Shown here in pieces: positions 5,726 through 58,682 of a stretch of DNA of 64,000 bases. The position numbers were made by a program, and so were the translations under genes. The number at the start of each line of letters is the position of its first letter. Position 1 is the stretch's first letter. The DNA comes from Pyrinomonadaceae bacterium (GTDB lineage Bacteria > Acidobacteriota > Blastocatellia > Pyrinomonadales > Pyrinomonadaceae), in contig DASZEN010000028.1 of the NCBI GenBank assembly GCA_035940775.1, positions 12,869 through 76,868 on the forward strand, in the 5' to 3' direction. Below the pieces are notes generated by a model, which saw nothing but the letters and a program-made list of their open reading frames with translations, was not told the origin of the DNA and did not search any database.

Positions 5726-6862
5726 CTAAAAGTGGCGCAGGAGCGGCGCGATGTCCGGCTGCGTGACGCTCAGCTTGATCTGGACTTCGTTATCCTGCGC
5801 CGTGACGGTCAGACCTTTGATAAGACTCGAAAATGCGTCGGCCTCAGCCTTGTTTGAGCCCCGGCCGATGCCCAGACCGCTGACGAGCTTTAGTCCGTTG
5901 AGCGCCTGGGCAATGTCGCGGGCCTGATCCGCATTCTCCGTGCGGGCGGCGAAGAGCGTTTCGGCGTTCGTCCCCACGGTGCTGAAAGAGCCGTAAACCT
6001 GCCGTATGGATTCGGCCAGCTTACTGACCTTAGCATCGCCGAACCCGAATCCCTTAGCCATTCCGGGCGGTACATTTCCAGCGAAGCCTGCGAAAGCGCC
6101 CGAAGTCCGCGTCGCTAACTCAACCAGGCTCTGGTCGACGCGCTCCGCGCCCGGATTGATGGTCGCGCGCACGCTCTCAAGATCGCCCATGACAATCGTG
6201 TTCGAGTCGAGTTCGGCGACGGCCATTCTTTGCGTATCGGCCTTGTCGGCCTTGAAGGCCGGAGCGCTGTCGCCAACACCAGCACCAGCGCCAGTACCAG
6301 CGCCAGTGCCAACGCCATCGCCGACGACGACGGCGGCGTCGGCGGCGACTACGTCGCGCGGTGAAGCCAGCACGTATATCTTCTTCCCTTCATAGACCTG
6401 CTCTTCGCGCTCGACCTTCTCCTTTTTCCTGACGGCCGCGAATCCTTTGTCGATCAAATCCGAGGCGACGAAGCTGCCGCGCGTGATGGCCACGAACCTG
6501 GAATGGCCGCTCCTTCGCGCCTGATCGAAGCGCAAGCCGATAGCGAGGCTGTCGAACGTGCGCGGGTCGATACCTGTCTCCTGCTGAAACTTGTCGAGCT
6601 TGGCGTTGATCTTCGCGAATAGAGTGGGGTCTCCGGCCAGAAAGTTCGGGAGCGTATCGGAGACGAGCTTCTGCGTGTCTACGAAGATGATGATGTCGGA
6701 TGCCGGAAGCTCGGCCAGCGCCGTGCCGGGCGCTACAACCGCCGCTCGGCTTGCAGCGTTAGTCTTCGCGACGACGCTCCGGCTCGCCTGGGCTACGATC
6801 AGGGCCATCGCCGCCAGCAGGATCGCCAGCGCGACGAGCGATGCTTGAAATCTCTTGTTCAT
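5726..6862 (-). CDS. secreted hypothetical protein (paralog A of tandem pair)
   Basis: 378-aa ORF with a signal peptide (LVALAILLAAMALIVAQA) and SD AAGAGG upstream. It is homologous end to end with the 7092..8135 product (LPASD..FVD.QKL..D.LP, RTFD..A.GLRF, ELATR, FA.NVPP). It carries a Gly-rich insertion, GDGVGTGAGTGAGAGVGD. Confidence 0.7.
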   Translation of the reverse strand: MNKRFQASLVALAILLAAMALIVAQASRSVVAKTNAASRAAVVAPGTALAELPASDIIIFVDTQKLVSDTLPNFLAGDPTLFAKINAKLDKFQQETGIDPRTFDSLAIGLRFDQARRSGHSRFVAITRGSFVASDLIDKGFAAVRKKEKVEREEQVYEGKKIYVLASPRDVVAADAAVVVGDGVGTGAGTGAGAGVGDSAPAFKADKADTQRMAVAELDSNTIVMGDLESVRATINPGAERVDQSLVELATRTSGAFAGFAGNVPPGMAKGFGFGDAKVSKLAESIRQVYGSFSTVGTNAETLFAARTENADQARDIAQALNGLKLVSGLGIGRGSNKAEADAFSSLIKGLTVTAQDNEVQIKLSVTQPDIAPLLRHF

Positions 6863-6987
6863 AATTTTTAACCTCTTAAATCTTCAAACAATCCTGGCCC
6901 CTTCTTAAAGAGCCTGCGGATTAATTCGGGGCCGATACTTCTCCTGCCCTGTAAAGACGACGAGGGCGCGACGACCGTTAACACGAA

Positions 6988-7018
6988 AGGCCATTTGTTC
7001 CTAAAGAACAAGTGGCCT
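6988..7018 (-). terminator. hairpin downstream of 7092..8135 gene
   Basis: AGGCCATTTGTTC ctaaa GAACAAGTGGCCT forms a 13-bp stem with one G-U pair. Only a weak T-run (TTCGTGTT) follows on the minus strand. Confidence 0.4.
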
Positions 7019-7091
7019 TATCAGTATTGCCCGGCTTCGGCTCGCATGGCAAGGGGGAAGTGACGCGCCCCCCGCTCCCGCGCGCCGCGCC

Positions 7092-8135
7092 CTAGAAAAT
7101 GCGTACCAGCGAGGCGATGTCCGTCTGAGCGATCTCCAAACGAATTTGCAGATCGCTCCCCTCGGTCGTCACCTTCAGATTGTCTATCACGCTCTGCGCG
7201 AGCTTGCCCTTGTCGGCCGGAAGCTGCGCGATCAGGAAGCCGCTGAACTGCCTCAGTGCGGCCAGCGAGTCGTTGAGGCTCCGTGCCTGCTCTGGCTTTT
7301 CCGTGTGCGCGACCATCAGCATGTCGAAGCCCGTGGCGGTCGTGCCGATTGAGCCGTAAGCCTGTCGAATCGAAGCGATGCTCCTGCTGATCTCCTCGTT
7401 GTCAATGCCGGAGGATTGGGCGACCGATGGCGGCACGTTGGCCGCAAAGCCTAAGATAGCGTTCGGATTGCGCGTCGCCAGTTGTACCAGCTCACCGCCG
7501 ATGCGCCCGCGTCCCTTGTGCGCATCGACCGCAGCCCGCACGACATCCAGATCGCCCAGCGCGAGCGTTTGCGCGTCGAGCGCCGCCACCGAAATGTCAC
7601 TCACCCGCATGTTCAAAAGCCCCAGCCACTTCATCCTGTCATTTACACTGAAGGTATAAATGGTCTGACCGGCATACTTCTGCTCCTGGTATTTGCCCTT
7701 CATGGCGATGCGCGCGGCGGCGATCATCGCGGGGGCATTGAAGCGACCCTGCGCGAGCGCGACGATGTCCGTGGTCACAACCGTCGGCGAGCGGCTGATG
7801 AAGCGCAATCCGACGGCGACGCGGTCAAACGTACGCACGTCCAGACCGTAGCGCGTTTTGAAGCTGTCTATGTCGGCATTGATCTGCGCCAGCCTCGGTT
7901 TATCTTCGGCGAGAGCGCGCGGCAAAGCATCATTCAATAGCTTCTGGACATCGACGAACATCGCCACGTCCGAGGCGGGCAGCGTCGGCAGCAATGCGTT
8001 GGCCGCCGGAGCCTGAGTAGTAGTCGTCGTCGCCGCCGTCGTCTTCGTCCTGGTCTGCGCGCTCGCAGCCGGAGCGATCAGGGCCGCGAGCGTGAGCCCG
8101 AGCATAATCAAAGAGGCGTAAATTTTCTTATTCAC
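7092..8135 (-). CDS. secreted hypothetical protein (paralog B of tandem pair)
   Basis: 347-aa ORF with a GTG start at 8135 preceded by AAAGGTGAG and a signal peptide ending AASAQT. It is collinear in similarity with the 5726..6862 product. Confidence 0.7.
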   Translation of the reverse strand: MNKKIYASLIMLGLTLAALIAPAASAQTRTKTTAATTTTTQAPAANALLPTLPASDVAMFVDVQKLLNDALPRALAEDKPRLAQINADIDSFKTRYGLDVRTFDRVAVGLRFISRSPTVVTTDIVALAQGRFNAPAMIAAARIAMKGKYQEQKYAGQTIYTFSVNDRMKWLGLLNMRVSDISVAALDAQTLALGDLDVVRAAVDAHKGRGRIGGELVQLATRNPNAILGFAANVPPSVAQSSGIDNEEISRSIASIRQAYGSIGTTATGFDMLMVAHTEKPEQARSLNDSLAALRQFSGFLIAQLPADKGKLAQSVIDNLKVTTEGSDLQIRLEIAQTDIASLVRIF

Positions 8136-8169
8136 TATTGATAGCTCACCTTTCAGGAAAGCAAGGGCT

Positions 8170-8248
8170 GTAAGGCCGCCGGGGATGAAATCTATAATTC
8201 GATAGTCTTGCGTGCTTTCACTTCATCCTCAAAATCTTCCGGCCTTAC
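8170..8248. repeat. palindromic element, possibly related to the GGGATGAA/TTCATCC repeat family; likely terminator of 8310..9218 gene
   Basis: Outer perfect 9-bp clamp GTAAGGCCG (8170-8178) / CGGCCTTAC (8240-8248) encloses GGGGATGAA ... CTTCATCC. Confidence 0.4.
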
Positions 8249-8309
8249 ACGTTAGTCCTCGCGGTTATCCGCCCACTTCGGATGCAAAGCCGGGCGGGCG
8301 GGGTTGGCT

Positions 8310-9218
8310 CTATTTTCTCCTGGCGCGACGGTTTTCTTCGCCGTCTCCGCCGAGCAGACCGGGCAGAGAGGGAAGCATCTGCGCCGTTATCTCGTCGGAG
8401 GTCACCTTCTTGTAATCCTTCGGCAGCTCGAAGAGCGACGCGTCAACCTCCTGCTTGATATCGCGCATCTCCATAGAGACCTTCGAGCCGCGCGCCGTCT
8501 CGCCCGTCGAAGTGGTCTCCGACTTGACGGGCATCCCGAGCGATTCGTCTATCCAGATGATGGTTTCAGTCTTTACACCGCGCGCCTCGTCGCCCCCGGC
8601 CGCAGTCGTCACTCTGTACTTGGTCGTCGCGCGCCCGTTGACCGTTTCCGTGCCGAGCTTTTCATAGTTGGCTCCGGGGTCGGATTCGTTAAGCAGCTTG
8701 TCGGGCGAAAAATCGGACGGAAGATTTTGGGCCATGCTTGACAGCGTGCCGCCCTCGCCGGGCTTGACCTCGGCGTAGAGCTTCTTTGAGTGAAGGAGCA
8801 CGTAATGTCCCGACGCGAGTTGCAGGTCGGACATCCTCGCCCCCGGAATCAACTCGTAATCGACGCGTCGCCGCTCTGCGTCGCGCGCAATCCTGATCTC
8901 GCGGCTCAATAGATTGCTGATGCCGGGGATAACAGGAGTGTCGCCGCCGAGGCTGCCCGTGACGACCATCGTCGCCGTGTAACGCTCCGGCTCTTTGGTC
9001 GAAAAGGGAGGCGTCCTGGAAGTGTTACCCGAGGCGTTGGAAGAGTTGCCGCCGCCCGCGCCGCTCGCCGCGCCGCCCGTATTGGCCTCTTCGCCGGAGC
9101 GTTTGCAGGCAGTAGTAGCGCCCGCGACGACCGTGAGCATAAGCGCGAGCGAGAGGACGAGCGCTCGCGGGCGCACCCGCTTCGCTTTCATTGATTCCGT
9201 CATGAATCGAAAAGGCAT
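8310..9218 (-). CDS. lipoprotein, LolA-like/DUF4412-like fold guess
   Basis: ORF 8310..9299 has a lipobox-like VVAGATTAC after a basic, hydrophobic N-terminus. The longest start would overlap the thiolase gene by 59 nt, so the start was moved to MPFRF (9218, AAGGAG upstream); 9191 is also possible. The fold guess rests only on general sequence pattern. Confidence 0.6.
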   Translation of the reverse strand: MPFRFMTESMKAKRVRPRALVLSLALMLTVVAGATTACKRSGEEANTGGAASGAGGGNSSNASGNTSRTPPFSTKEPERYTATMVVTGSLGGDTPVIPGISNLLSREIRIARDAERRRVDYELIPGARMSDLQLASGHYVLLHSKKLYAEVKPGEGGTLSSMAQNLPSDFSPDKLLNESDPGANYEKLGTETVNGRATTKYRVTTAAGGDEARGVKTETIIWIDESLGMPVKSETTSTGETARGSKVSMEMRDIKQEVDASLFELPKDYKKVTSDEITAQMLPSLPGLLGGDGEENRRARRK

Positions 9219-9240
9219 CGAAATTTTATTCTCCTTAACC

Positions 9241-10422
9241 TCAAACGCGCTCGACCAGCAGGGCCAGGCCCATCCCGCCGCTGACGCACAACGTTGCAAG
9301 TCCGCGCCGCGCCCTGCGCTTCTTCATCTCGTGCAGGAGCGTCACGCTGATGCGAACTCCGGTGCAGCCGATTGGATGGCCCAGGGCGATGGCCCCGCCG
9401 TTGACGTTCAAACGCTCGGCATCCAACCCGAGGTCGCGGTCGCAGGCGATGACCTGTGCCGCGAACGCCTCGTTGAGTTCCACCAGCTCTATATCGTCGA
9501 GCGTCAAGCGCTGCCGTTCGAGCAGCGCCCGCACGGCTGGCACGGGGCCAATGCCCATGATCTCAGGGGCGACGCCCGCGATCTCGTAATCGACGATGCG
9601 CGCCTCGGCTTCAGCGCCGGATTCCTTCAACGTCTCCTCGCTCATCAGCACGAGCGCCGCCGCTCCGTCCGTGATGCCGGAAGAATTACCCGCCGTCACC
9701 GTGCCGTCCCTGTTAAAGACGGGCGCGAGTTTGCCGAGCGCTTCGATTGTCGCCCCGGCCCTGTAGTGCTCATCGCGCGCAAATGTGACGGCCTCGCCTT
9801 TGCGGCCTTTGACCTCAAGCGGCAAAATCTCTGCATCGAAGCGACCGCCCTCGATGGCAGCTTCGGCGCGCTGCTGCGACCTCAATGCATACTCGTCCTG
9901 TTCGCGTCGCGAGACTTCATAGCGACGCGCCAGATTCTCAGCCGTCTCGCCCATCACCAGACCCGAGAGCGGATCGTTGAATCCGTCGCGGTACATACCG
10001 TCGACCAGTTCCATATTGCCGAGTCGAGCGCCCCAGCGCGCGCCCTCGGCATAATAGGGGACGCGCGACATGCTCTCGGAGCCGCCCGCGAGCACGGCCC
10101 GCGCACGCCCGAGCATGATCTCCTGCGCGCCCAGGATAATCGCCTTCAGTCCAGAGCCGCACGCCTGATTGACGGTGAAGGCGGGCACAGTTTCGGGCAC
10201 GCCCGCGCGATACGTAATCTGGCGGGCGACGTTCGGGCCGCCTCCGGCCTGACGTGCCGAACCCCAGATGGATTCCTGAATCTGTAAGGGTGAAATACGC
10301 GCCCGACGCAAGCTTTCCCGGGCCACCGCCGCGCCCATATCGGCCGCCGACCACCCGGCGAGCGTTCCGCCGAAACGTCCTATGGGCGTGCGCACGGAAC
10401 CCGTTAGATAGACATTCTTCAT
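9241..10422 (-). CDS. acetyl-CoA C-acetyltransferase (thiolase II)
   Basis: Thiolase motifs are present: VNQACGSGLKA (active Cys), NVNGGAIALGHPIGCTG and CVSGGMG. Start placed at MKNVYLTGSVRTPIGRFGG (10422). Confidence 0.9.
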   Translation of the reverse strand: MKNVYLTGSVRTPIGRFGGTLAGWSAADMGAAVARESLRRARISPLQIQESIWGSARQAGGGPNVARQITYRAGVPETVPAFTVNQACGSGLKAIILGAQEIMLGRARAVLAGGSESMSRVPYYAEGARWGARLGNMELVDGMYRDGFNDPLSGLVMGETAENLARRYEVSRREQDEYALRSQQRAEAAIEGGRFDAEILPLEVKGRKGEAVTFARDEHYRAGATIEALGKLAPVFNRDGTVTAGNSSGITDGAAALVLMSEETLKESGAEAEARIVDYEIAGVAPEIMGIGPVPAVRALLERQRLTLDDIELVELNEAFAAQVIACDRDLGLDAERLNVNGGAIALGHPIGCTGVRISVTLLHEMKKRRARRGLATLCVSGGMGLALLVERV

Positions 10423-10657
10423 TGCCACGCTGTCCTTAAATGGGAAATACTTATGGTGTCCGAATGACGTGTGATTGATGTAAGATGTTAACACATAGAA
10501 AAGCAGGGATGAAGGCGCAAGGATGAATTATAAAAGAGCAGCCGCGAATGCTTTGAATGCCGGATGCCGAATATTAGTCAGAGAGCCCGACACGCGCAGC
10601 TAAGATTCAGCGGCCGTCTTTTCATTCTCCGCCCTTACTTTTACGCCACCTCACCGG

Positions 10658-12211
10658 ATGCTCGAACGCCTCACCGACAGGGACGAAATAGCAGACGCCG
10701 CGCGGCGCATCGATGAATTGATCGCGGCGCACGGCGAGTGGGTCTACGCTCAAGCGTCAGCGGGCGGCGCTACGACGGCGCTGCGACGAAATGAGATAGA
10801 CATTCACGTCTCGCAGAATCGCCTGATCTTCTCCTGCTGGACTGAGAAGGGCGTGCGCACGTGGCGCGTCAGGGCATGGGAATGGACGGGCGAGAAGCTC
10901 CTGATGGACGCGACGCGCCGCGCCGGGGCGGAGCGCTCCCGGCTCGTGCTCGTGCCGCGTCTCTCGACCGAAACAGCAAATATAATCATCAGCGCCGCGC
11001 GTCGTGAACGCGCGCAACATCTGGCGCGTCTCGCCTCGGGCGTGATTGCCGGAGCCGCGACGGTCGAGCGGACGGCGCTCAGCGCGGGTGCTCGGCGCGG
11101 CCTGCCCGGACGATACGCACGCATACTGCTTCGCCTGCCGCAAGAGCGCATCGCCGTCACAGGAGTAGTCGCCCCCTTTCAAGCATACGATGTCGACGCT
11201 TTTCTATCCTCCACACTCATCTGGTTTACGCGCGCCCGTGAGCGAGCGCGCTTACCCCCCATACGCAAACTCTGGCTCATCGCCGACCATCGTCACACGG
11301 CTGCGATAGCCGCGCGCCTCGCGCTCCTCAATGAAGACTTGCGGCGGTCTATCTCTCTGTTTGTGATTGATGATGAATGGCGCGAGCTAAGTCGAGCGTC
11401 CCCCTTAGAGCAGGAGGAGCTATGGACGGCACGGCCCGCGCGTCTGCTTCGGCCCTCAAAAATCGAGCCGGGCGAATGGGCCGCACGAATCGTAGCCCTC
11501 GCGCCCGGTGCGATTGACGTGGTGAGCGCGCGCCGTGGCGAGACGCTGCGCTATCACGGACTCGCTTTCGCGCGTGTGCGGCGTGTGATGAGCGTCGAGC
11601 GCGTGTGGTTCGGCGTCGCGGGCGCGCCGCGCCGTTTGCTGGACGAGAGCACGGCCGAAGACCTGGACAAACTCTTACGCCAGTTGATAGAGCACCGTCG
11701 CGCCGATGCTGTTGATCGCCGCCACGCGCTCTACAGGCTTGCGCCCGAAGCCTGGCTCGAATCCATGCTCAGGCGCGACATCACGCACCTCGACCCAGGG
11801 CTTATCCTCTCGCCTCTCTACGCGCAGTTTCGCGCCGCGCAGGAGGAGGTAGCCCGGGGCGCTGCGGCGGCGCGTCCCATCGACCTGCTGGCGCTCAGGC
11901 GCGACGGTCGTCTCGTCGTCATCGAGCTGAAGGTTTCCGAAGATCGCGAGCACGTCTTGCAGGCGGCAGACTACTGGCGGCGCGTCGAGGCGCACAGGCG
12001 TTGTGGCAACCTGCGGCGCGCGCGTCTATTCGGTGACGCTCCCATCGCAGATGAATCCCCGCTCGTCTACCTGGTCGCGCCGACGCTCCGTTTTCATCGC
12101 TCCTTCGCCACGTTGGCCCGCGCCATCGACCCAAGAATCGAAACCTATCGCTTCGACCTCAACGAGGACTGGCGCGCTGGCATCCGCGTCATGCGACGCG
12201 TTGTGACTTAA
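10658..12211 (+). CDS. hypothetical protein with C-terminal PD-(D/E)xK (RecB/Cas4/NucS-like) nuclease motif
   Basis: 517-aa ORF. The C-terminal block reads PIDLLALRRDGRLVVIELKVSEDREHVLQAADYW, giving D409, E423-x-K425 and Q435xxxY439. The roughly 400-aa N-terminal part matches no family I recognise and has no Walker motif. Confidence 0.6.
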   Translation: MLERLTDRDEIADAARRIDELIAAHGEWVYAQASAGGATTALRRNEIDIHVSQNRLIFSCWTEKGVRTWRVRAWEWTGEKLLMDATRRAGAERSRLVLVPRLSTETANIIISAARRERAQHLARLASGVIAGAATVERTALSAGARRGLPGRYARILLRLPQERIAVTGVVAPFQAYDVDAFLSSTLIWFTRARERARLPPIRKLWLIADHRHTAAIAARLALLNEDLRRSISLFVIDDEWRELSRASPLEQEELWTARPARLLRPSKIEPGEWAARIVALAPGAIDVVSARRGETLRYHGLAFARVRRVMSVERVWFGVAGAPRRLLDESTAEDLDKLLRQLIEHRRADAVDRRHALYRLAPEAWLESMLRRDITHLDPGLILSPLYAQFRAAQEEVARGAAAARPIDLLALRRDGRLVVIELKVSEDREHVLQAADYWRRVEAHRRCGNLRRARLFGDAPIADESPLVYLVAPTLRFHRSFATLARAIDPRIETYRFDLNEDWRAGIRVMRRVVT

Positions 12212-12219
12212 CACGTTAA

Positions 12220-12928
12220 GCGGCAATTTCGTGCGTCGCAGAAGAGGCCAGTTCAGCTCATCCTGGCGGCAATTGGCTCAATAACGAGCACTGGCGGGCG
12301 CGCGCGTGGCTTCGCGACCGGAACGATAAAACTGCCGGTAATAGTGAGCCGCCAGGCACAAGCTCCGACTCCATTTGTGTCAAATACTACACAGACTTGA
12401 ATGATTATTTGAAAGATACAGATACAGGTCTCGTCAGTTGTATCTCAAAATCGCAGGAAGGAAATATGGTTTACAGGCATGGCCTTCCATATAACTTTAT
12501 CTGAGGGCGACACCGGAAAATTATTATTGAAAAAGCTGGCAGATGGGGTTAGCATTAAGGTCTTCATTTACGACCCGCCAGCCTCAACGTACCGCTGGTG
12601 GCGCAACAGTGGGGCAGAGAAGACGCAAATCATCTGCTCAGAGTGATTGCCGCGACCGGCATTAATATCTAACCGAGCTTTACGCGACCTCTAAAAGTAA
12701 AAACCTTAAGAAGTATGTGGGAATCGAATTGGATGGAGAAATTCCTCAATCATGTCTCTACATTTTTGATCGCCATGACCCCGGTAGAGTTATACCAATT
12801 TTATTCCTCACGCGGGTCAAAACAGATCCACCGAACTGACCGGATATCTTTTCCGCAACGACGAATGTCGCGACGCTATTATTAATTTATGGGATGGCCG
12901 CGAAGAGGTGGGCGTCAATTACGTTTGA
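12220..12928 (+). pseudogene. multi-frameshifted gene relic (resembles the C-terminal PLD-like domain of XRE-family regulators, DUF5919-type, from memory)
   Basis: No ORF of 60 aa or more exists here, but protein-like segments line up consecutively in three frames. They are ...ICVKYYTDLNDYLKDTDTGLVSCISKSQEG.. / MAFHITLSEGDTGKLLLKKLADGVSIKVFIYDPPAST.. / KKYVGIELDGEIPQSCLYIFDRH.. / IPHAGQNRSTELTGYLFRNDECRDAIINLWDGREEVGVNYV*. At least three frame changes or stops separate them. Confidence 0.4.
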
Positions 12929-13163
12929 AGCATGGAAGGATAAACCGGAGAGCAGGGAATGGCTGGCAGGCGGAAACATTAAAACTCAATGAGCTGCGTG
13001 AAGATAGCGGTTAACATAGGCATTGCCTGTCAGTCCATTTTAGATGATTGCGTTTGAGCTTGCCTCTCTTTTACTCATCTGGTCTGTAACTGTTTCTCAG
13101 CAGTTCAACTCCGGCTCCCTCGCTGGTCGGCTTCTAACCATAACAAAACAGTGGAGGTGAGAT

Positions 13164-13688
13164 ATGAATTATATGGCACTGGGCTTTGTCGGGGCTGGCT
13201 TCTTTCTGTCACTTATCGCCTTTATCCTTAGGGGGTTGAAAGCCAGAATAGACTGGGGCCTTGATTGCAAGTACTATAGCCTGCTAGGTCTCTCCGTATT
13301 AGGAAGCGTTCTGGCTTTTATCGGGTTCCTGAAGTTCTCGCATGGGATTCCTGATAAGGTGGACTACACACAAACCCTTACTGTTATGGCTCTTCTAACG
13401 TCAGGGATAATTGCGGGCTACTTCAACTTTACTTTTGACCAGGCGGCCGATGACGAAAAGTTTTTCCCCTCCGCCCTCTCGATCTGCTTTATCCTACTGT
13501 TCCATCTGGTGTTCGCTGCCATCAGCTTTTACATAGGAAAGAGCGAGCGGATCCATGAGGTCGAAGGAGCGAACGTCATCGCTCCTCTAATCATGCTGAT
13601 CCTTCTGGTGGCAATTGCCGTGCGCGAATTCTGGGACTACCGGAAAGGCCCAGCGGCTGGCGGGTCAGCGGGCACGATCACCCAGTAG
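13164..13688 (+). CDS. hypothetical 5-TM membrane protein (island gene)
   Basis: 174-aa ORF with a strong SD TGGAGGTGA 4 nt upstream of the ATG. Five hydrophobic helices are visible. It is AT-richer than the surrounding genes. No family recognised. Confidence 0.7.
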   Translation: MNYMALGFVGAGFFLSLIAFILRGLKARIDWGLDCKYYSLLGLSVLGSVLAFIGFLKFSHGIPDKVDYTQTLTVMALLTSGIIAGYFNFTFDQAADDEKFFPSALSICFILLFHLVFAAISFYIGKSERIHEVEGANVIAPLIMLILLVAIAVREFWDYRKGPAAGGSAGTITQ

Positions 13689-13883
13689 CGCCTCTTTCAT
13701 CTTTTGCCTGCTCCCATCAATCGTGCGTCACGCGGGCGGTTACTTCAATTGGAGCTATAGACTTCAAGCGGGTGAAAGCAGTTTTTAGTAGGCCCTCGTA
13801 CGCGCCGAGCCTGCTCCTCATCAACCCATCGCGACCATCGGCCAGCGCCTGAGAGGCCGCCCTTACCTGGAGGTGACCACACA

Positions 13884-15884
13884 ATGCAGACGAAATTGCA
13901 CTTGCTGTCTATGCCCTGGGCTAACCCGGAGTTGCCCTCGATTCAAACCGCAGTCCTCAAGTCATATATAGACTCCGTGCTGGGCGCGCGGGTCGTGACT
14001 CGAACGTATTCTGCCTTTGCCAGCATCCTGCTCGAACAGAATCACGGCGGCTACGTGGACTACTACGACAAGTATCAGGCCTTTGAGGAATACCCGTACT
14101 TCCTCATGTACTACAGACGTTTCCTGCCAGCCGACCGGCGACTGAGCCGCATCTCTGCCGAGAGACTGATAGAGAAGATCAATGACCGCGATACTGACTC
14201 GCCGCTCAGCTTGCGAAGAATCGCGCGCCTGGAAAACCGTACGCAACGTTACATAAGGGAGACCATAGCCCCCCAGTTGTCCCGGCGTGGCCTCAATGTT
14301 ATGGGCTTTACCCTCAACTACTATCAGCTCTATGCCTCGCTTTACTGTGCGCGATATTTGCAGGAGCGCTTCCCGGACTACAGGTACCTGTTTATCTTCG
14401 GCGGGGCGACCGTTATTTATCCGAAGGTGGCCGAGGTCTTGAAAGTTCTGGGAACCGAGGGCCTCTGCGTCATCGGCGAGGGCGAACATAAGCTGGAGCT
14501 TATTCTCAGAGAGATTCTGGCGACGCCTCCCGACAACTCGAATTTGATGGAGCGTCTGTCGTCGCTGCACGAAGGCATTTATGAGATACAACGCCGCACC
14601 ATCAACCTGTATGAGCCGACCCCGGCTGCGCTGCTCGACATGCAGATGCCTATGGAGAAGCTGCCGCTGCCGGATTTCGACGAGTACTATGCATCGCTGC
14701 GCGAGGTCTTTCCTGATAGCAGGCTGCACGCGAAATACAAGTCCGAGACGTGGCTCGCGCTTGAGGGGACGCGCGGCTGCTTCGCCCATTGCGATTTCTG
14801 CGACGTGCATACGAGCTGGTCTGGTTTCCGCAAGAGCACGCCGGAGCGAATCCTCGACAACGTGTCGGAGTTGACGCGCAAACATAAAAGCCCCAGGGTC
14901 AAGTTCATGGATAACGTATGCGATACGTGGGCGGAGAAGTACGCCGAACTTCTGATTGAACGCAAGTGTCGAATCACGTCCTTCATGGAATGCCGCGTGC
15001 ATCATCCGGAGGTCTTCTGGACGAAGCTCTCATTATCGGGCGTCGAACTCGTTCAGGTAGGCATAGAGGCGCTCTCCCCGACGCTGATACGTGCGATGAA
15101 TAAGGGTACGCGGGCCAAGCAGAACCTGCTCGTACAGAAGTGGCTCAAGGAACTGGGAATAGAATCTCTCTCGAATATCATCACCCACCACCCGAAATCG
15201 ACTCTCCGGCACGTCGAGGAGACGAAGCAGGTTATACGCCTGATACCGCACCTTGATCGCTTGTATTTCTCACCGCTGGCGCTACTCATCGGCAGCCCCC
15301 TGGACGAGCGCCTGCACCCGGAGGAAAAAAGGGAGTTGGAGGAGCGACAGCTTTTCGACTTGCCTAAGAGTTTAGACAAGTATTTCGTCCTCAAGGGCGA
15401 GTATGAGCCGCCCGACGATTGGTTCGACAGGGGAGTATCTGACGCCTGGGATAGGCTGGTCGAATGGGGCGAAGATTTTTTCCAGACCGCAGGCGAGGAG
15501 GCTTTTATGACCTCCACGCGTTACGGCCCCGAAGAGGTGATGATTAGCGACGGGCGCTACGGCAAGGTCGAGAAGTATTATCTGGCGGGCGACAGGGCAT
15601 GCATATACGACCTTTGCCATCAGGGGGCGACGATGGCGACGCTCAGCAGCCGCACGGAACTGCCGCCGACAACGATTGAAAGGAATCTGTCCTGGTTGAT
15701 GGATAGGCGATTGCTGGTGGAGTTGGACGGATTCTACATTGCGCTGGCGCTCAGACCGCGCGACGAACTAATACACAATTACGTCGAGCTGGCAACTCCG
15801 AAAAACTCGCCGCCGCCTAAAGTCATGGGGCTTTCGCTGCCGGTACATCAGGGCATGGAGACTGCGGGGGCCGGGCAACAGTAG
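13884..15884 (+). CDS. radical SAM enzyme with N-terminal B12-binding-like domain and C-terminal PqqD/RRE-like domain (RiPP-maturase-like)
   Basis: 666-aa ORF with the same SD TGGAGGTGA. The canonical cluster is LEGTRGCFAHCDFCDV, with C299-x3-C303-x2-C306. The N-terminus (LHLLSMPWANPELPSIQTAVLKSYI) and FRKSTPERILDNV...VKFMDNV resemble the bacteriocin/RiPP maturation rSAM family (TIGR03975-like, from memory). The C-terminal YYLAGDRACIYDLCHQGATMATLSSRTELPPTTIERNLSWLMDRRLLVELDG looks like a PqqD-type peptide-recognition element. Confidence 0.85.
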   Translation: MQTKLHLLSMPWANPELPSIQTAVLKSYIDSVLGARVVTRTYSAFASILLEQNHGGYVDYYDKYQAFEEYPYFLMYYRRFLPADRRLSRISAERLIEKINDRDTDSPLSLRRIARLENRTQRYIRETIAPQLSRRGLNVMGFTLNYYQLYASLYCARYLQERFPDYRYLFIFGGATVIYPKVAEVLKVLGTEGLCVIGEGEHKLELILREILATPPDNSNLMERLSSLHEGIYEIQRRTINLYEPTPAALLDMQMPMEKLPLPDFDEYYASLREVFPDSRLHAKYKSETWLALEGTRGCFAHCDFCDVHTSWSGFRKSTPERILDNVSELTRKHKSPRVKFMDNVCDTWAEKYAELLIERKCRITSFMECRVHHPEVFWTKLSLSGVELVQVGIEALSPTLIRAMNKGTRAKQNLLVQKWLKELGIESLSNIITHHPKSTLRHVEETKQVIRLIPHLDRLYFSPLALLIGSPLDERLHPEEKRELEERQLFDLPKSLDKYFVLKGEYEPPDDWFDRGVSDAWDRLVEWGEDFFQTAGEEAFMTSTRYGPEEVMISDGRYGKVEKYYLAGDRACIYDLCHQGATMATLSSRTELPPTTIERNLSWLMDRRLLVELDGFYIALALRPRDELIHNYVELATPKNSPPPKVMGLSLPVHQGMETAGAGQQ

Positions 15885-16104
15885 CTTGTCTCTCTTCGGT
15901 CATCTCACGGACGCAACCTACATCAGATCGCTTTGAGGATGAGCATTGATCCCTGCCCGCAAACTGTTTTCCTGAAGCGGAACAGGAAGGTGAACATCAC
16001 GCGCGATGCGGAGAGGGACGGGCGTGCGTGCCTGGAGGGCTCGGCTGCCAGAGTTTTATCGAGGCGGGTTTGGAGGGCTCTCTCTCGGATTGCTGTGAAG
16101 TGTT

Positions 16105-16686
16105 TTAGCGCCAGTCGGGGGGCTCTGCCGGGGGCACGTAGGCGGTCTCCAGGTCGTTCGAGGATAGCTCCTTGAACCGGCGCGAGACGGAGGCGGGGCC
16201 GAGCTTGCGGCGCAGCAGGCTACGGAAATTCGTCTCCTGATCGACGGCTGTAAAGGCGCGCTTCGGTATCACGGAGATCATGCCTTTGCCGTACACCAGC
16301 ACATAGAAACTCTCGTTTTCGAGCACCCTGTTGTAGAGGCTCCAGTTGAGGCGGGAGTCAAGCTGATCGGTCTTGAAATGGATTCCTTCTTCCGTGAACT
16401 CAAGGGAATATTCGTCCCGATACTTGGGATCGCTGCGGAATCGCTGGCGCGGAAAGATGAAGAAGAGCGCCAGCACGAAGGTAAAGAGAACCAGGCCCAT
16501 GCTCAACAGGAAGAGCGACATGACGACCTCGTTGATCGCGGCGAAGAGGACGAAGGCCAGCGCGAGAAGCATAAAAGCCACGCCGAAGCGGAGCAGCAGA
16601 CCGGGTTGACCTGTGATGTAGAGACGCGTCGCCGCGACCCATTCCTTCTCGGTATATTTGAAACGAAGGCGGACTGTTTCATCCAT
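16105..16686 (-). CDS. YcxB-like membrane protein
   Basis: ORF 16105..16713. Start placed at MDETV (16686), which has GGAGGG 8 nt upstream. Two adjacent TM helices are followed by a soluble domain ending ...VIPKRAFT, the YcxB-family pattern. It lies 4-30 nt downstream of the pilT stop and is probably co-transcribed. Confidence 0.6.
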   Translation of the reverse strand: MDETVRLRFKYTEKEWVAATRLYITGQPGLLLRFGVAFMLLALAFVLFAAINEVVMSLFLLSMGLVLFTFVLALFFIFPRQRFRSDPKYRDEYSLEFTEEGIHFKTDQLDSRLNWSLYNRVLENESFYVLVYGKGMISVIPKRAFTAVDQETNFRSLLRRKLGPASVSRRFKELSSNDLETAYVPPAEPPDWR

Positions 16687-16717
16687 CCCTTTTGCCCTCC
16701 ATCGAAAAAGCATTCGC

Positions 16718-17851
16718 TCAGGTATTGCTGACGCTGACGATGCGGTCGCGCTCCTGTGTGGTTTGTTCCATGCTCGATAGAATGCCGCTGATGCGCATCC
16801 TGAACTCGTCCGCGTTGGTCGCGTTCCTGAGCGCCTCTTCGAGCGAGATCAGCCCCGACTGGTATAGGTGAAAGAGCGATTGATCGAAGGTCTGCATGCC
16901 GTACTGAGTATTACCGACAGCGATGGCCTCGCGTATCTGCGAGGTCTTCTCCTCATTGATGATGCAATCGCGTATCAGGCCGGTCGAGACCAGAATCTCG
17001 ATGGCGGGCACACGACCCGCACCGCGCGCGGCGCGTACCAGTCGCATCGAGACGACGGCCTTGAGAATACCCGCGAGCTGTAGGCGCACCGATTTCTGCT
17101 GGTGCGCCGGAACCGAAGAGACGATGCGCGTGATCGTCTCCGTCGCGTCCAGCGTATGGAGTGTCGAGAGAACGAGGTGGCCCGTCTCGGCTGCCGCCAG
17201 CGCCGTCTCAATCGTCTCGTAATCGCGCATCTCGCCGACGAGGATAACGTCAGGATCTTGACGGAGCGCGCCGCGCAGCGCTTCGGCGAACGAGCGCGTA
17301 TCGACATCGACTTCGCGTTGCGAGATGAAGGATCGCTTGTCGCGGTGCAGGAACTCGATGGGGTCTTCGATGGTCACGATGTGGCCGCTGCGTGTGGCGT
17401 TGATGCGGTCGATCATGGCGGCGAGCGTGGTCGATTTGCCGGAGCCCGTCGCTCCCGTAACCAGTATCAGCCCGCGCCGCTCGTCTGTGATCCGTTCGAT
17501 GACGGGCGGCAGGCCCAGCTCGCTGCTCGTGCGTACCTGGTCGGGGATTACTCTGAGGACTATGGAGACCGTCCCGCGCTGCTGAAAGACGTTGGCGCGA
17601 AAACGGCCGACGCCCGGAATCCCGTAGGCGATGTCGGCTTCGTTGACCTCCTTGAAGCGCTGTTTCTGTCGGTTCGACATCATCGAGAAAGCCATGTCGA
17701 GCGTGTCTTCCTGTGTGAGCCGCACCGAATCGACGACGGGGCGAAGCTCGCCGCCCAGGCGCATGAAGGGGAATGAACCGGCTTTGATATGGAGGTCGGA
17801 AGCGCCGTGGGCGGCGACGTTTCTCAACAGATCGTCAATCTTGACTGGCAT
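16718..17851 (-). CDS. pilT: type IV pilus twitching-motility ATPase PilT
   Basis: 377 aa. Motifs: N-terminal ASDLHIKAGSFPFMRLGGEL, Walker A GATGSGKST, Walker B ILVGEMRD and TGHLVLSTLHT. Confidence 0.9.
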   Translation of the reverse strand: MPVKIDDLLRNVAAHGASDLHIKAGSFPFMRLGGELRPVVDSVRLTQEDTLDMAFSMMSNRQKQRFKEVNEADIAYGIPGVGRFRANVFQQRGTVSIVLRVIPDQVRTSSELGLPPVIERITDERRGLILVTGATGSGKSTTLAAMIDRINATRSGHIVTIEDPIEFLHRDKRSFISQREVDVDTRSFAEALRGALRQDPDVILVGEMRDYETIETALAAAETGHLVLSTLHTLDATETITRIVSSVPAHQQKSVRLQLAGILKAVVSMRLVRAARGAGRVPAIEILVSTGLIRDCIINEEKTSQIREAIAVGNTQYGMQTFDQSLFHLYQSGLISLEEALRNATNADEFRMRISGILSSMEQTTQERDRIVSVSNT

Positions 17852-18112
17852 GTGTAGCTTAAAGACCTTTCCGCGAGAGATTCGGGAAAAAGAGAACGGA
17901 CGAGGAGGGGCGCTTCAGTTTCGGGATTGGAGAATGCTTGCGGCGCTTCTGACGGGGAAGGCGCAAGGGGCGTGGCCGAACTTTGCGGGGCCCTTCAAGG
18001 GCGGCGCGCCACCGGAAGATTAAAGCCCGGAGACGCTCAAAAAGCATCATAGCCTGCGCGCTCCGTTGCGTCAACGATTTATCCGGAAAGCTTCGAAGGG
18101 CAAAGAATCTGA

Positions 18113-30853: not shown

Positions 30854-33800
30854 ATGAAAGAATGTCCAGCTTGTCGACGCTGTTTTCCTGACCACGTCAA
30901 TCACTGCCCGAACGACGGTGATGCGACCGTGCATTCGATTGCGGGCGAGCCGATGCTCGACGGGCGCTATCAATTGGAGCGACGGCTCGGACACGGCGGC
31001 ATGGGCGTGGTCTTTCAGGCGCGTCACATCTTTCTCAAAACCGCTCACGCCATCAAGGTGATCCTGCCCGATCTGGTCGGCAACGACCCGATGCTGGTCA
31101 CGCGCTTTCGCCAGGAGGCGCTGGCGGCCGCCGCCATTCGCCACCAGAACATCATCGCCGTCACGGACTTCGGAGTGGCGCGCGGCACTATGCCCTTCCT
31201 CGTCATGGAGTTCGTCAAGGGCAAATCCCTGCACGACATACTGGCCGCCGAGGGGCCGCTCTCGCCCGCCCGCGCTTTAGAGATCATGGCGGCCGTCGGC
31301 TCGGGCGTGGCCGCCGCGCACCGTCAGAACATAGTTCATCGCGATTTGAAGCCCCTGAATATTATGCTTCAGGACGATATGCCGGTGAACGAGGGCGTCA
31401 AGGTTCTGGATTTCGGACTTGCCAAGATCAAGTCGGGCGAACTGCTCGGCTCGTTCGTTCAGGCGAAGACGAGCGGGCTGATGGGCTCGCCCTTCTACAT
31501 GGCTCCCGAGCAATGGTCGGATGAGGAGCCGGACGTTCGCGCAGACATCTACTCTCTGGGCGTGATCCTTTACCAGATGCTCGGCGGCGACGTGCCCTTC
31601 AAGGGCACAGGCATCCCCTCGATCATGAAGAAACACCTGACGAGCGCGCCGCCGACGCTCTCTTCGATGGGCGTGAGCGTCGCGCCGCAGATCGAGGCCG
31701 TGGTGCGTCATGCGCTCGAAAAGGATGCCGACAATCGCCCGCAGACGGTCGAGGCTTTCGTCGCGGAGCTGCGCGACGCCGTGGCCCAGACCTCGGCCTC
31801 GCTCGACCGCACCTACGTCGGGACGGTCGGCGTGCAGTCGGAGACCATCATCACCACCACGCCGTCGCGCCCGGCCATCTCCAGACCTCCGCAACATCAT
31901 CAGGAGACGACCCTAAGCATTCGCACGTCGCCCGCCTACTCGCGCGTCTATATCAATAACGTCTCCGTTGGCAAGAGCGATGGCTCGGGCCAACTGGTCG
32001 TTCAGGAAATCCAGCGCGGCGTGCATCGCGTGCGCGTCGTCCATGACGGCTACGCCGAGTGGGAGGGCCAGATAGAGTGCGACGGCGGCGAGTGTCGCGT
32101 CGATGCCGAGCTGCAAAGCCTGATGCAGACGAGTTTGCCGCAGTTGTCGGGCGATCAACTGGCGGGCACGATCACGGGCGCGCCCGACCAGATGCCGACC
32201 TCCTCGCACTCCATCGAAGCGCAGCGCTTACGCGCGCAGGCCGCAGCGCTCGAAGAGAAAGCGCGCCAGGAAGAGGCCGCGCGGCGTGAGCAGGAGCGCC
32301 GCGAGCAGGAGCGGCGCGAGATGGAAGAGCGCGACCGCATCGCTCGCGAGGAGATCGCGCGCGAAGAGGAAGCGTGCCGCGTCGCCGAAGAGGAACGCCT
32401 TCGCCTCGAAGCCGAAGAGCGCCGGAAGGCCGAGGAAGAGGAGCGACAGCGCGCCGCAGAGGCCGAACGTCTGCGGGTTGAAGAGGCCGAGCGTTTGCGC
32501 GCCGAAGCCGAAGCCGCGCGTAAACAGGCGGAAGCTGAAGCGCAAGAGCGTAAGCGACTGGAAGAAGAGCGAAAGCGGGCCGAGGCCGAAGCACGCGAAC
32601 GCGCCGAAGAGGAGAAGCGCCAGCGCGCCGAAGAGGAGGCCGCCCGCCGCAAGGCCGAAGAGGCGGCATCGCAAAAGCGCGCCGAGGAGGAGAAGCTCCT
32701 GCGTGCCGAGGCCGAGGCCGCGCGCAGGCGCGCCGAAGAGGAATCCGTCGCGCGCAAGGCCGCCGAAGAAGAGGCCGCTCGATTGCGCGCCGAGCAGGCG
32801 ACACGCAAGAAGGCGGACGAAGAGAGAGATCGCAAGCGCGCCGAAGAGGAACGCCTGCGCGCCGAGGAAGCAGACCGTCTTCGCGCCGAAGCGGAGGCCG
32901 CACGCAAGCAAGCGATAGCGGAAGCGCAAGAGCGCAAGCGCATCGAAGAGGAGCGAAAGCGGGTTGAAGCCGAAACGCAGCGTCGCATTGAAGAGGAACG
33001 AAAGCGCGCCGAGGCCGAAGCGCAGCGTCGTCTCGAAGAAGAGCGCCAGCGTTTAGAGAAAGAGAGGCTTGAGCGCGAGGAGAGGGAACGCGCCTCGGCT
33101 GCGGAGCGCGAACGTCTCGCGCGCGAGCTGAAAGAGCGTGACGAACAGATGGCGCGCATGGCCGCGACCAGCATCGCGCCCGATATGGACGCCACCCAGC
33201 AACAGCGGCGCGGCGTCGTCACCCAGCAGATGGGAGAAAACAGCCTCTCCGACGCCACCGTAGTGCCCTCCTGGCAGCAGCAACAGCAGCAGCAGAGCCA
33301 CCCCGGCCTGCATCAATCGGTCGCGCCGCCCTACGCTCCGGCAGAGGCTAAGAAGTCTTCGATGCCGATAATGCTGATTGCGGCGGTGCTCGCGCTGGTC
33401 GTCGCGGGCGGCGGCATCGGCGCCTATTTCATGCTCAGCTCCAAGCCCGCCGCCAGCGATCAGACGACACTGAAGACAGACCCGTCCAAGACCGGCGGTG
33501 GGACGAACAACTCGGATCAGAAGAGCCCCAGGGCAGAGATGATCGCCATTCCCGGCGGGACATTCCAGATGGGACGCAGCGACGGCCCCGCCCAGGAAGC
33601 TCCCGCTCATTCGGTCACCGTCAGTGATTTCCTGATGGATAAGACGGAAGTCACCAATGCCGAATACGCCGAGTTCGTCAACGAGACCAAGCGGACTCCG
33701 CCGAGCCATTGGCCCGAAGGCAAAGTACTTGCAGGGCAGGAGCAGTGGCCCGTCAATAACGTCTCGCTGGATGATGCCAAGGCGTTTGCCGCCTGGCGCT

Positions 33801-34219
33801 CAAAGAGAGATGGCGTAACGTACAGGTTGCCGACGGAAGAGGAATGGGAGTACGCGGCCCGAAACGGCGATCAGGGTAATCTATACCCGTGGGGAAACTC
33901 CTGGGCCAACGACAGCGCTATCGTCAAAGCGGTTTCGCCGCAGAGCGTGGGCACCATGCCGAACGGGAAAAATCGTTGGGGAGTACTGGATTTGATCGGC
34001 AACATCTGGGAGTGGACATCGTCGAAGGCTTCGATCTATCCAGGTAACGGAAGGCTGTCGGTTCCGGATCAGGACAAGGACTCGTATGTGATGCGAGGCG
34101 GGTCATACGCGAGCGAGCCTTCGGGAGAGCGCGCGATCACGGCGACGTTCCGCGACTGGGTTCCGGCGGCGACGAAGCATCCGACTCTGGGCTTCCGACT
34201 CGTGCGTGCCGGTTCCTGA
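30854..34219 (+). CDS. Zn-ribbon / Ser-Thr protein kinase / PEGA / long E-R-K-A helix / TM / FGE-sulfatase-domain protein
   Basis: 1121 aa. Domains in order: N-terminal MKECPACRRCFPDHVNHCPNDG; kinase motifs HRDLKPLNIM, DFGLAK and YMAPEQ; a PEGA-like segment (LSIRTSPAYSRVYINNVSVG...VHRVRVVHDGY). About 300 aa of E/R/A/K repeats follow, then Q7 and a TM helix (MPIMLIAAVLALVVAGGGIGAYFML). The C-terminal FGE/SUMF1 motifs are RLPTEEEWEYAAR, GNIWEWTSS and RGGSY. Confidence 0.9.
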   Translation: MKECPACRRCFPDHVNHCPNDGDATVHSIAGEPMLDGRYQLERRLGHGGMGVVFQARHIFLKTAHAIKVILPDLVGNDPMLVTRFRQEALAAAAIRHQNIIAVTDFGVARGTMPFLVMEFVKGKSLHDILAAEGPLSPARALEIMAAVGSGVAAAHRQNIVHRDLKPLNIMLQDDMPVNEGVKVLDFGLAKIKSGELLGSFVQAKTSGLMGSPFYMAPEQWSDEEPDVRADIYSLGVILYQMLGGDVPFKGTGIPSIMKKHLTSAPPTLSSMGVSVAPQIEAVVRHALEKDADNRPQTVEAFVAELRDAVAQTSASLDRTYVGTVGVQSETIITTTPSRPAISRPPQHHQETTLSIRTSPAYSRVYINNVSVGKSDGSGQLVVQEIQRGVHRVRVVHDGYAEWEGQIECDGGECRVDAELQSLMQTSLPQLSGDQLAGTITGAPDQMPTSSHSIEAQRLRAQAAALEEKARQEEAARREQERREQERREMEERDRIAREEIAREEEACRVAEEERLRLEAEERRKAEEEERQRAAEAERLRVEEAERLRAEAEAARKQAEAEAQERKRLEEERKRAEAEARERAEEEKRQRAEEEAARRKAEEAASQKRAEEEKLLRAEAEAARRRAEEESVARKAAEEEAARLRAEQATRKKADEERDRKRAEEERLRAEEADRLRAEAEAARKQAIAEAQERKRIEEERKRVEAETQRRIEEERKRAEAEAQRRLEEERQRLEKERLEREERERASAAERERLARELKERDEQMARMAATSIAPDMDATQQQRRGVVTQQMGENSLSDATVVPSWQQQQQQQSHPGLHQSVAPPYAPAEAKKSSMPIMLIAAVLALVVAGGGIGAYFMLSSKPAASDQTTLKTDPSKTGGGTNNSDQKSPRAEMIAIPGGTFQMGRSDGPAQEAPAHSVTVSDFLMDKTEVTNAEYAEFVNETKRTPPSHWPEGKVLAGQEQWPVNNVSLDDAKAFAAWRSKRDGVTYRLPTEEEWEYAARNGDQGNLYPWGNSWANDSAIVKAVSPQSVGTMPNGKNRWGVLDLIGNIWEWTSSKASIYPGNGRLSVPDQDKDSYVMRGGSYASEPSGERAITATFRDWVPAATKHPTLGFRLVRAGS
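32483..32984 (+). repeat. internal coding duplication (384-nt register) inside kinase E/R/K/A region
   Basis: The copy starting near 32483 encodes EAERLRAEAEAARKQAEAEAQERKRLEEERKRAEAEA. The copy near 32867 encodes EADRLRAEAEAARKQAIAEAQERKRIEEERKRVEAE. The CGT of the RLRAE motif sits at 32492 and 32876, exactly 384 nt apart. Confidence 0.8.
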
Positions 34220-58346: not shown

Positions 58347-58405
58347 TAATAAGGGAGCCCTGAGCATTATAAAAAGAATCCGCGTCGAAACTACGAGCGC
58401 AATAA

Positions 58406-58682
58406 AGCGACATTCATAGAAACCGGCTGTGGCTTTATAGCTTCCTTAAAACGAAACAATGTGAATGGGAAGGGTGTACCGTTAATGACCCTGACATGCT
58501 CATGCTCGACCATATAAAACCTGCTGAAAAACGAAACCATGTCAGTAGTACGGTACACGCCTCATTCAGCCTGAAAAAGCATTCAGGAAGAGGTGGCGAA
58601 GCGTCGTGTATTGCGCGCCCGTCATCACCACGTACATACTATTCAGCAGTTCGGTTATAAGAAATGGCTCGTTGAAGATTGA
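58406..58682 (+). pseudogene. HNH endonuclease relic (frameshifted, Zn-Cys residues lost)
   Basis: Frame 1 reads ...LYSFLKTKQCEWEGCTVNDPDMLMLDHIKPAEKRNHVSS... After a -1 shift it continues SIQEEVAKRRVLRARHHHVHTIQQFGYKKW*. This matches the C..C-LEFDH-K...EI.KC.VLCANCHR.HT layout of small HNH nucleases, with three Cys replaced by R, R and H. It ends 55 nt from the tRNA-Thr 3' end. Confidence 0.45.

Follow-up and report, generated by a model that had tools for sequence, protein, structure and literature searches.

A small, probably horizontally acquired islet carrying a membrane protein gene and a radical S-adenosylmethionine enzyme gene at a variable site in Pyrinomonadaceae

We analysed a stretch of 64,000 nucleotides (nt), here called the window, of a metagenome-assembled contig from Pyrinomonadaceae (Acidobacteriota), in which two convergent transcription units are separated by DNA of low G+C content. 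The unit on the left is the gene for a 517-amino-acid (aa) protein, which we call p517, and the unit on the right consists of pilT and a ycxB-like gene. Between them lie an AT-rich stretch, a gene for a predicted membrane protein (mem174) and a gene for a radical S-adenosylmethionine (SAM) enzyme (Table 1). A preliminary description of the window, made from the sequence alone, had marked a block at 12212-16104 as an AT-richer island. We found that most of this block is an islet that is missing from close relatives, that it lies at a site where other relatives carry other genes, and that its two genes occur together in unrelated surroundings.

We compared the window with its nearest relatives, which were reached through the ycxB product (loci from related genomes are labelled L and a number). 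These were L119 and L120, whose ycxB product is 83% identical to that of the window, and L121 (73%). L119 and L120 share the gene order PQQ-propeller, ilvE-like, pilT, ycxB, an opposite-strand 514-aa homologue of p517, and thiolase, and only 150 nt separate ycxB from the p517 homologue. The homologue of gene 10658..12211 therefore abuts ycxB/pilT in these relatives, just as the preliminary description had proposed to check. The flanks of both loci are 81-85% identical to the window in nucleotide sequence. For L119, identity was 81.7% over window positions 6355-12198 and 85.1% over 15931-18095, with only 16 unaligned nt between the two blocks. At the empty site, the stop codon TAA is followed by CTTTGAGGAT; in the window, TAA is followed by 3,719 nt and then by CTTTGAGGAT. 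Read over a longer distance, with slashes marking the junctions, the empty site is ...GGTGAATTAA / CTTTGAGGATCAGG... and the window is ...TGTGACTTAA / CACGTTAAGC...(islet)...CAGATCG / CTTTGAGGATGAGC... Because the p517 stop codon of L119 and L120 directly abuts the sequence found at window position 15931, the islet occupies 12212-15930 and begins at the first base past the p517 stop codon. The left edge of the block was thus drawn correctly, but its right edge was not, since the sequence matches the empty site again from 15931 onwards; the remaining 174 nt are native intergenic spacer. The islet is accordingly a presence/absence polymorphism with exact junctions, and the closest relatives lack it at the syntenic site.

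The composition of this DNA also differed from that of its host. The G+C content of the window was 0.611 and that of the block 12212-16104 was 0.537, the lowest of any 3.9-kb stretch in the window (0.15th percentile); for the islet it was 0.535. Counted over 60-nt lines, mean G+C was 0.534 within the islet versus 0.616 elsewhere (Mann-Whitney p = 2e-13). The block was the top tetranucleotide outlier of the window (distance 0.328 versus a median of 0.161), and all of the top 8 tetranucleotide sliding windows overlapped it. These computations over the full length bear out the AT-richer block. The earlier spot counts were exact as well (0.783 in the line at 11041; 0.483, 0.567 and 0.45 inside the block), although the contrast, while significant, was smaller over full lengths than those single 60-nt lines had implied. 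The dip was uneven from part to part. G+C was about 48% over the 950 nt that follow the left-flank gene (0.48 in the spacer at 12212-12964 and 0.47 in the leader at 12965-13163). The membrane protein gene had a G+C content of 0.512, a G+C content at third codon positions (GC3) of 0.623, which is 3.8 standard deviations (sd) below the other 40 genes (0.753 +/- 0.034), and a synonymous codon use that was atypical by 2.7 sd. The radical SAM gene had a G+C content of 0.563 and a GC3 of 0.729, and its synonymous codon use lay within 0.3 sd of the window genes; its low G+C is due to codon positions 1 and 2 (0.570 and 0.391). A check of codon usage thus set the membrane protein gene apart but found the radical SAM gene typical of the window: foreign-looking usage is limited to the spacer and the membrane protein gene, and the radical SAM gene is host-like.

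The two genes recur elsewhere as a pair. We found the membrane protein gene and the radical SAM gene adjacent to each other in six contexts, namely the window, L117, L002, L114/L006, L116 and L118, and the unit common to these loci runs from 110-200 nt upstream of the membrane protein gene to the stop codon of the radical SAM gene. The cargo of the islet comprises four parts, an AT-rich non-coding spacer, a conserved leader, the membrane protein and the radical SAM enzyme, of which the last three make up a compact module with strong ribosome-binding sites of its own. In L117 the module stands directly after p517 (66% aa identity), with only the left flank shared with the window; the other copies have unrelated neighbours (Table 1), so the same block occurs in unrelated genomic contexts. 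The closest radical SAM copy was the non-syntenic one in L002 (86% aa and 84.5% nt identity), against 83% and 81.3% for the syntenic one in L117. The radical SAM gene has 53-56% G+C and the membrane protein gene 43-51% across host flanks of 50-62% G+C, and this steadiness fits a module that circulates among relatives of lower G+C content and has entered a 62% host. The earlier suggestion of a non-core system held in so far as an accessory pair travels together, but the pairing is confined to a narrow clade and distant homologues of each protein occur without the other. We considered a phage or plasmid origin and rejected it, as we found no relatives of the enzyme on viral contigs and no match to plasmid DNA.

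To place the islet among its counterparts, we compared what follows the p517 stop codon across relatives. This position is a recurrent cargo site in Pyrinomonadaceae. Different cargo occupies it in L121, L034, L041, L051, L058 and L086 (Table 1), and the site is empty, with a spacer of 98-225 nt, in at least 9 more distant relatives; alternative cargo or an empty spacer was present in at least 15 relatives. L117 and L034 are close to each other (83% nucleotide identity over p517 and 88% on the right flank), and L117 bears the membrane protein gene and the radical SAM gene where L034 has a 6.9-kb cargo. The islet resembles the variable-cargo islets and hot spots that lie between convergent core genes, with which it shares exact presence or absence, differing cargo and deviant composition. 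It is unlike a classical genomic island with an att site, and we do not apply that definition because no integrase, tRNA gene, or direct or inverted repeat was found. In kind, then, the islet is ordinary: it is a base-exact case, from a soil phylum that has received little study, of a site between convergent core genes whose cargo varies. The site past the p517 stop codon could be used to mine the accessory genes of Pyrinomonadaceae.

Direct repeats at the borders, which the preliminary description had asked for, were not found. A search with 8-nt seeds over 11900-16400 returned only short matches at chance level, none of them bridging the junctions, and direct inspection of the junctions and of the six module ends revealed no shared termini. 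The sole tRNA gene of the window lies at 58737. We also observed a near-palindrome, CTTAACACGTTAAG, at 12207-12220, which spans the left junction and combines the stop codon with the first 9 nt of islet sequence; no similar element was seen at the right junction or at the other loci bearing the module.

Supported by the empty site, the composition and the occurrence of the module in unrelated contexts, the earlier view that this is horizontally acquired accessory DNA stands, and we put the probability that 12212-15930 is a small horizontally acquired islet at about 85%. It would have been inserted between the convergent p517 and pilT-ycxB units, and the module was most likely brought by recombination from a relative of lower G+C content, without a dedicated mobility gene. 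Judged by the identity of shared genes, the likely grouping is ((window, L119/L120), (L117, L034)). Each pair has one member with the module, the window in the first and L117 in the second, and this requires either two gains at the hot spot or one gain and two scarless losses. Several observations speak against a gain in the window lineage. No target-site duplication, terminal repeat, inverted repeat, integrase, transposase or tRNA gene was found inside the islet or at its borders. The module stands at the same left junction in L117, as it would after an older acquisition with loss in L119/L120 and in L034. That the radical SAM gene is host-like in GC3 and codon use implies either an old arrival or a close donor. 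The likeness of L117 and the host-like radical SAM gene also favour a reading in which the block is ancestral to the group and was deleted in the L119/L120 and L034 lineages, which would make the empty sites secondary. We consider such an ancestral block unlikely and favour gain because the empty junction is exact and scarless, with no repeats that would promote precise excision; because the AT-rich spacer of the window could not be aligned with that of L117; because the closest copy of the module, in L002, is non-syntenic and lies beside an integrase in unrelated surroundings; and because the site in the more distant outgroups is empty or differently filled. The spacer and the membrane protein gene, moreover, are still compositionally foreign. 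One could also suppose that there was no horizontal transfer and that the low G+C content reflects non-coding DNA and the amino-acid make-up of both proteins. The radical SAM gene, with its normal GC3 and its deficit at positions 1 and 2, is consistent with this, and the window genes at 476-1552 and 62739-63665 are similar in overall G+C. We find this hardly credible: it leaves the 3.8-sd GC3 deficit of the membrane protein gene, the module in unrelated contexts and the presence or absence at an exact junction without explanation, and it is contradicted by the empty-site alignment.

Table 1. Features of the islet and its flanks in the window, cargo found after p517 in related loci, and surroundings of the module elsewhere
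Feature	Locus	Positions	Strand	Remarks
p517, 517-aa core gene, left flank	window	10658..12211	+	stop codon is the left junction
Islet	window	12212..15930		3,719 nt; absent at the syntenic site of L119/L120
AT-rich spacer	window	12212..12964		G+C 0.48; earlier 'decayed gene' unsupported
Module leader, conserved, non-coding	window	12965..13163	+	contains Shine-Dalgarno site TGGAGGTGA at 13152-13160
mem174, predicted five-helix membrane protein, 174 aa	window	13164..13688	+	unnamed family; topology read from sequence
Second Shine-Dalgarno site TGGAGGTGA	window	13868..13876	+	upstream of the radical SAM gene
Radical SAM enzyme, 666 aa	window	13884..15884	+	Pfam Radical_SAM, E = 2.9e-14
Core intergenic spacer ycxB/p517	window	15931..16104		aligns directly past the p517 stop codon in L119/L120
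ycxB-like gene, right flank	window	16105..16713	-	Pfam YcxB; 4 nt downstream of pilT; GC3 0.759
pilT (type IVa pilus retraction ATPase family)	window	16718..17851	-	TIGR01420, 464 bits, above cut-off
Cargo after p517	L121	10617-11312		DUF4386 gene
Cargo after p517	L034	8796-15661		6.9 kb: AT-rich start, cytochrome-c-like protein, 2Fe-2S and molybdo-oxidoreductase subunits, major facilitator superfamily (MFS) transporter
Cargo after p517	L041	11528-12388		Uma2-like protein (Uma2-like endonuclease)
Cargo after p517	L058	2368-5188		772-aa metallophosphoesterase-like protein
Cargo after p517	L051	8592-12657		extracytoplasmic function (ECF) sigma factor, Ser/Thr kinase, transglycosylase
Cargo after p517	L086	11486-13000		two small secreted or membrane proteins
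Cargo after p517	L117			unrelated AT-rich spacer (46% G+C), membrane protein gene, radical SAM gene
Module context	L002			tyrosine integrase and DyP-type protein
Module context	L114/L006			Fic, DinB
Module context	L116			AAA ATPase, Pvc16-like protein
Module context	L118			MacB-type ATP-binding cassette (ABC) transporter

We next consider the parts of the islet. The preliminary description had seen a decayed gene in its first part, and our results do not support this. The stretch 12212-12964 contains 6-16 stop codons in each of the six frames and shows no third-position G+C periodicity; it had no Pfam match at E <= 1 and no tblastx match among about 120 fetched related loci, and it could not be aligned with the equivalent spacer of L117. 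The leader that follows is 74-80% identical in nucleotide sequence to the DNA upstream of the membrane protein gene in L117 and L002, with indels that are not multiples of three, and its portion at 13053-13163 is conserved in all three loci. A CCUCUCUUUU tract at 13064-13073 could pair with the GGAGG of the Shine-Dalgarno (SD) site at 13153-13157, which suggests that the SD may be sequestered. A consensus fold of the leader showed no covariation among the three sequences and was no more stable than shuffled sequences (z = -0.25), Rfam at E <= 1 returned only a spurious microRNA match, and scans for promoters and terminators gave scores at or under shuffle expectation.

The identical strong SD sites reported for the two genes proved to be a unique pair. 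The sequence TGGAGGTGA occurs exactly twice in the window when both strands are searched, at 13152 and 13868, and the predicted energies of its duplexes with the anti-SD are -15.2 and -15.4 kcal/mol, whereas the strongest value among the rest of the 42 genes is -10.9. The context cTTAC(T/C)TGGAGGTGAC before the radical SAM gene is kept in 6 of 6 module loci.

In the product of the radical SAM gene, a Rossmann-like domain at the N-terminus (aa 1-215) is followed by the radical SAM core and a C-terminal winged-helix domain (aa 540-637). Its cysteine triad C299-x3-C303-x2-C306 is invariant, as is a GEGE motif that aligns with the GEGE of MgmA. In an AlphaFold model (predicted local distance difference test score (pLDDT) 89, predicted template modelling score (pTM) 0.87), the N-terminal domain contains a helical insertion of about 90 residues (aa 44-130), and the C-terminal domain is built of three strands (aa 542-548, 551-556 and 563-568), three helices (569-580, 584-591 and 595-607) and a beta-hairpin wing, with pLDDT > 90 for strands and helices. 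The top 16 Foldseek matches to this model were cobalamin-type radical SAM enzymes (OxsB, MgmA, CysS, TsrM and TokK) or the related AprD4, with E values of 5e-17 to 3e-11, template modelling (TM) scores of about 0.45-0.49 and identities of 12-15%. OxsB and MgmA were the only sequence matches in the PDB to a profile of the family. At the level of the fold, the enzyme therefore has the Rossmann-type N-terminal domain fused to a radical SAM barrel that characterizes class B, the cobalamin-dependent radical SAM enzymes. The matches to OxsB (5UL2-4), MgmA (9CCB), CysS (9N1B-D), TsrM (6WTE) and TokK (7KDX) span both the N-terminal domain and the barrel; the enzyme of the islet differs from them in its low identity, its helical insertion and its lack of a Pfam B12-binding match.

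Among curated families, the enzyme is closest to TIGR03975 (rSAM_ocin_1, 'RiPP maturation radical SAM C-methyltransferase'). Residues 6-623 aligned to positions 2-606 of the 606 in this model (E = 1.7e-60, 205.2 bits), and the two share this end-to-end alignment, the three-part build with the cysteine triad, the C-terminal extension and the B12-type fold. They differ in that the present clade scores below the cut-off, in that its gene stands alone or beside that of a five-helix membrane protein, and in that no NHLP or Nif11 precursor, cyclodehydratase or other gene for ribosomally made peptides that carry post-translational modifications (RiPPs) is adjacent here. In the model, the C-terminal domain has a three-stranded sheet followed by three helices (aa 542-607), an order also seen in the PqqD-like RiPP recognition element (PF05402), and adds to it the beta-hairpin wing. 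The family of the enzyme has at least 205 members, ranging from 86% down to 30% identity, in Acidobacteriota, Myxococcota (Sorangium and other Polyangiaceae), Bdellovibrionota, Proteobacteria (Paracoccaceae) and others. Within Pyrinomonadaceae, the gene is solo in a group at 66-70% identity and paired with the membrane protein at 76% and above. Distant members adjoin genes for SPASM radical SAM enzymes, a PqqD protein, a canonical B12-radical SAM enzyme and glycosyltransferases, which supports a peptide-maturation ancestry. As the family often lacks a visible precursor peptide, it is a target for enzyme discovery.

The membrane protein mem174 matched no Pfam or NCBIfam family and showed no transporter signature. 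A word search found 10 relatives and a profile search 53 representative clusters; the motifs FYxGKS and FWDYR are conserved among them, and the C-terminal tail is variable. We considered mem174 as the substrate of the enzyme and set this aside: because the tail is not conserved and distant members occur without the enzyme, mem174 is unlikely to be a substrate and is not an obligate partner.

For the function of the pair, we tentatively propose that the gene product is a radical SAM enzyme of the B12 type acting on an unactivated carbon, which it would most likely methylate, in a peptide or protein encoded elsewhere, and that the membrane protein is a clade-specific accessory; this is one possibility, held with much less assurance than the origin of the islet. 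The enzyme would use a [4Fe-4S] cluster and SAM together with its B12-type N-terminal domain. Its substrate would be encoded outside the islet and might be docked by the C-terminal winged-helix domain, and the membrane protein would serve localization, export or immunity rather than be the substrate. As a functional reference we take PoyB, PoyC and TsrM, which are class B radical SAM C-methyltransferases from RiPP pathways (PMC11285071), and the enzyme is likened to PoyB and PoyC by class. A number of results weigh against this proposal. The score of 205.2 bits lies under the curated cut-off of TIGR03975, 281.85 bits, and all 27 of the 27 diverse relatives tested hit TIGR03975 best yet also fell below it (best E = 9.7e-66), from which we conclude that the family is a separate, uncurated sister clade. 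No match to PF02310 or any other Pfam B12-binding family was found in aa 1-219 at E <= 10, and none to PqqD (PF05402) in the C-terminal domain even at E <= 10; on its own, this domain retrieved only generic winged helices of the MarR/IclR type in Foldseek (best E = 2.5e-3). When open reading frames (ORFs) of 25 aa or more, lying no further than 4 kb from the radical SAM gene, were clustered all against all in 30 loci, no small ORF recurred outside the gene itself, and among 117 small ORFs of the window an NCBIfam scan found no NHLP, Nif11 or other precursor family; no association with a precursor and other RiPP genes was thus seen, and a precursor elsewhere in the genome is possible. In addition, enzymes of the 66-70% clade have no accompanying membrane protein, and the two distant mem174 family members that we inspected had no radical SAM neighbour.

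Other functions seem less probable still. A self-sufficient two-gene cassette, in which the five-helix membrane protein and a B12-type radical SAM enzyme that stands alone, with a fused winged helix resembling a peptide-docking domain, move between Pyrinomonadaceae hot spots without a mobility gene and carry out a membrane-associated radical modification of a host protein or a lipid-linked substrate, is a speculative alternative that we rate as rather unlikely; if it were true, the sister clade of TIGR03975 would have left precursor-linked RiPP chemistry. Improbable to a greater degree is that the islet is a self-contained RiPP cluster, its precursor encoded by a short ORF in 12212-13163 or in the intergenic spacers, matured by the radical SAM enzyme and exported by the membrane protein. 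The full-length alignment with a family of RiPP C-methyltransferases, the C-terminal beta3-alpha3 order typical of peptide-recognition elements, the PqqD and SPASM enzymes beside distant homologues and several ORFs of 35-56 codons in 12397-13160 are consistent with such a cluster. However, the small ORFs are not conserved in L117, L002, L116, L114 and L118, the sole conserved upstream stretch has frame-breaking indels, the spacer between the two genes is as short as 22 nt in L002, and no precursor family was detected; there is also neither a protease nor an ABC exporter, and the five-helix protein lacks any transporter signature. Very improbable, in our judgement, is that the islet is an anti-phage or other conflict module whose site, beside a nuclease-like gene, is a hot spot of the defence type. 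The varied cargo at the site does include a Uma2-like endonuclease and a 772-aa metallophosphoesterase-like protein, p517 has weak matches to the PADLOC candidate family PDC-S11, and Fic and an integrase are among the neighbours of the module elsewhere. By contrast, PADLOC has no model that either island protein matches, no relative of the enzyme was found on viral contigs or plasmids, the rest of the cargo at the site has metabolic or regulatory roles (oxidoreductase, MFS transporter, sigma factor and kinase), and p517 is core rather than variable.

Some members of the enzyme family stand in other arrangements. We observed that distant radical SAM members form tandem or nearby paralogue pairs, in L016 (3721-7959), L018 (7953-13446), L019 (4979-9893), L021 (713-4641), L022 (6-3319), L023 (3137-11537) and L030 (3358-12263), and that a TonB-dependent receptor is also among their neighbours; in L016 the distant homologue is accompanied by a free-standing PqqD protein. 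These loci look like RiPP-type clusters. In L004/L015, at 10161-11023, a fragment of a second B12-binding/radical SAM gene, in pieces of 55 aa and 242 aa, lies directly downstream of a solo gene and may be a decayed tandem paralogue. The radical SAM copies of L009 and L011 (8001-9977) are 67-68% identical to that of the window, their hosts have about 69% G+C, and their GC3 is 0.88-0.93; one of the two contigs is labelled Eremiobacterota. The gene is fully adapted to these very different hosts; perhaps it passes between phyla, unless the bin is mislabelled.

Both flanks of the islet are core. Homologues of p517 were found in 80 metagenome loci, with thiolase upstream and divergent in nearly all of those whose contigs extend that far. 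The protein matched no Pfam or NCBIfam family and no PDB sequence; its weak matches to PADLOC PDC-S11 lie at aa 358-443, where the motif IDLLALRRDGRLVVIELKVSED resembles PD-(D/E)xK, so that a nuclease-like protein is plausible. On the right, the names given to ycxB and pilT in the preliminary description agree with the Pfam YcxB and TIGR01420 matches. We found 139 homologues of ycxB, mostly in Pyrinomonadaceae, and pilT is syntenic with the ilvE-like gene in many relatives. In more distant relatives, p517 adjoins pilT across a gap of 98-225 nt without ycxB, and this raised the suspicion that ycxB was part of the islet; we dropped the idea because the adjacency of pilT and ycxB is conserved in the nearer clade of L119, L120 and L121. 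The ycxB gene is core, with host-like composition.

Elsewhere in the window, the most extreme strand asymmetry was at 32001-33500, where AT skew reaches +0.48 to +0.51 at 67-68% G+C, inside an ORF of 1,122 aa (30854-34219). At 58001-60000, G+C falls to 0.54 beside a tRNA-Thr gene (58737-58812, minus strand), after which GC skew and AT skew rise; this is another candidate variable region. Finally, one of the 117 small intergenic ORFs of the window matches zinc-finger regulators of the DksA/yteA family (best E = 5e-16) and is probably a real, unlisted gene.

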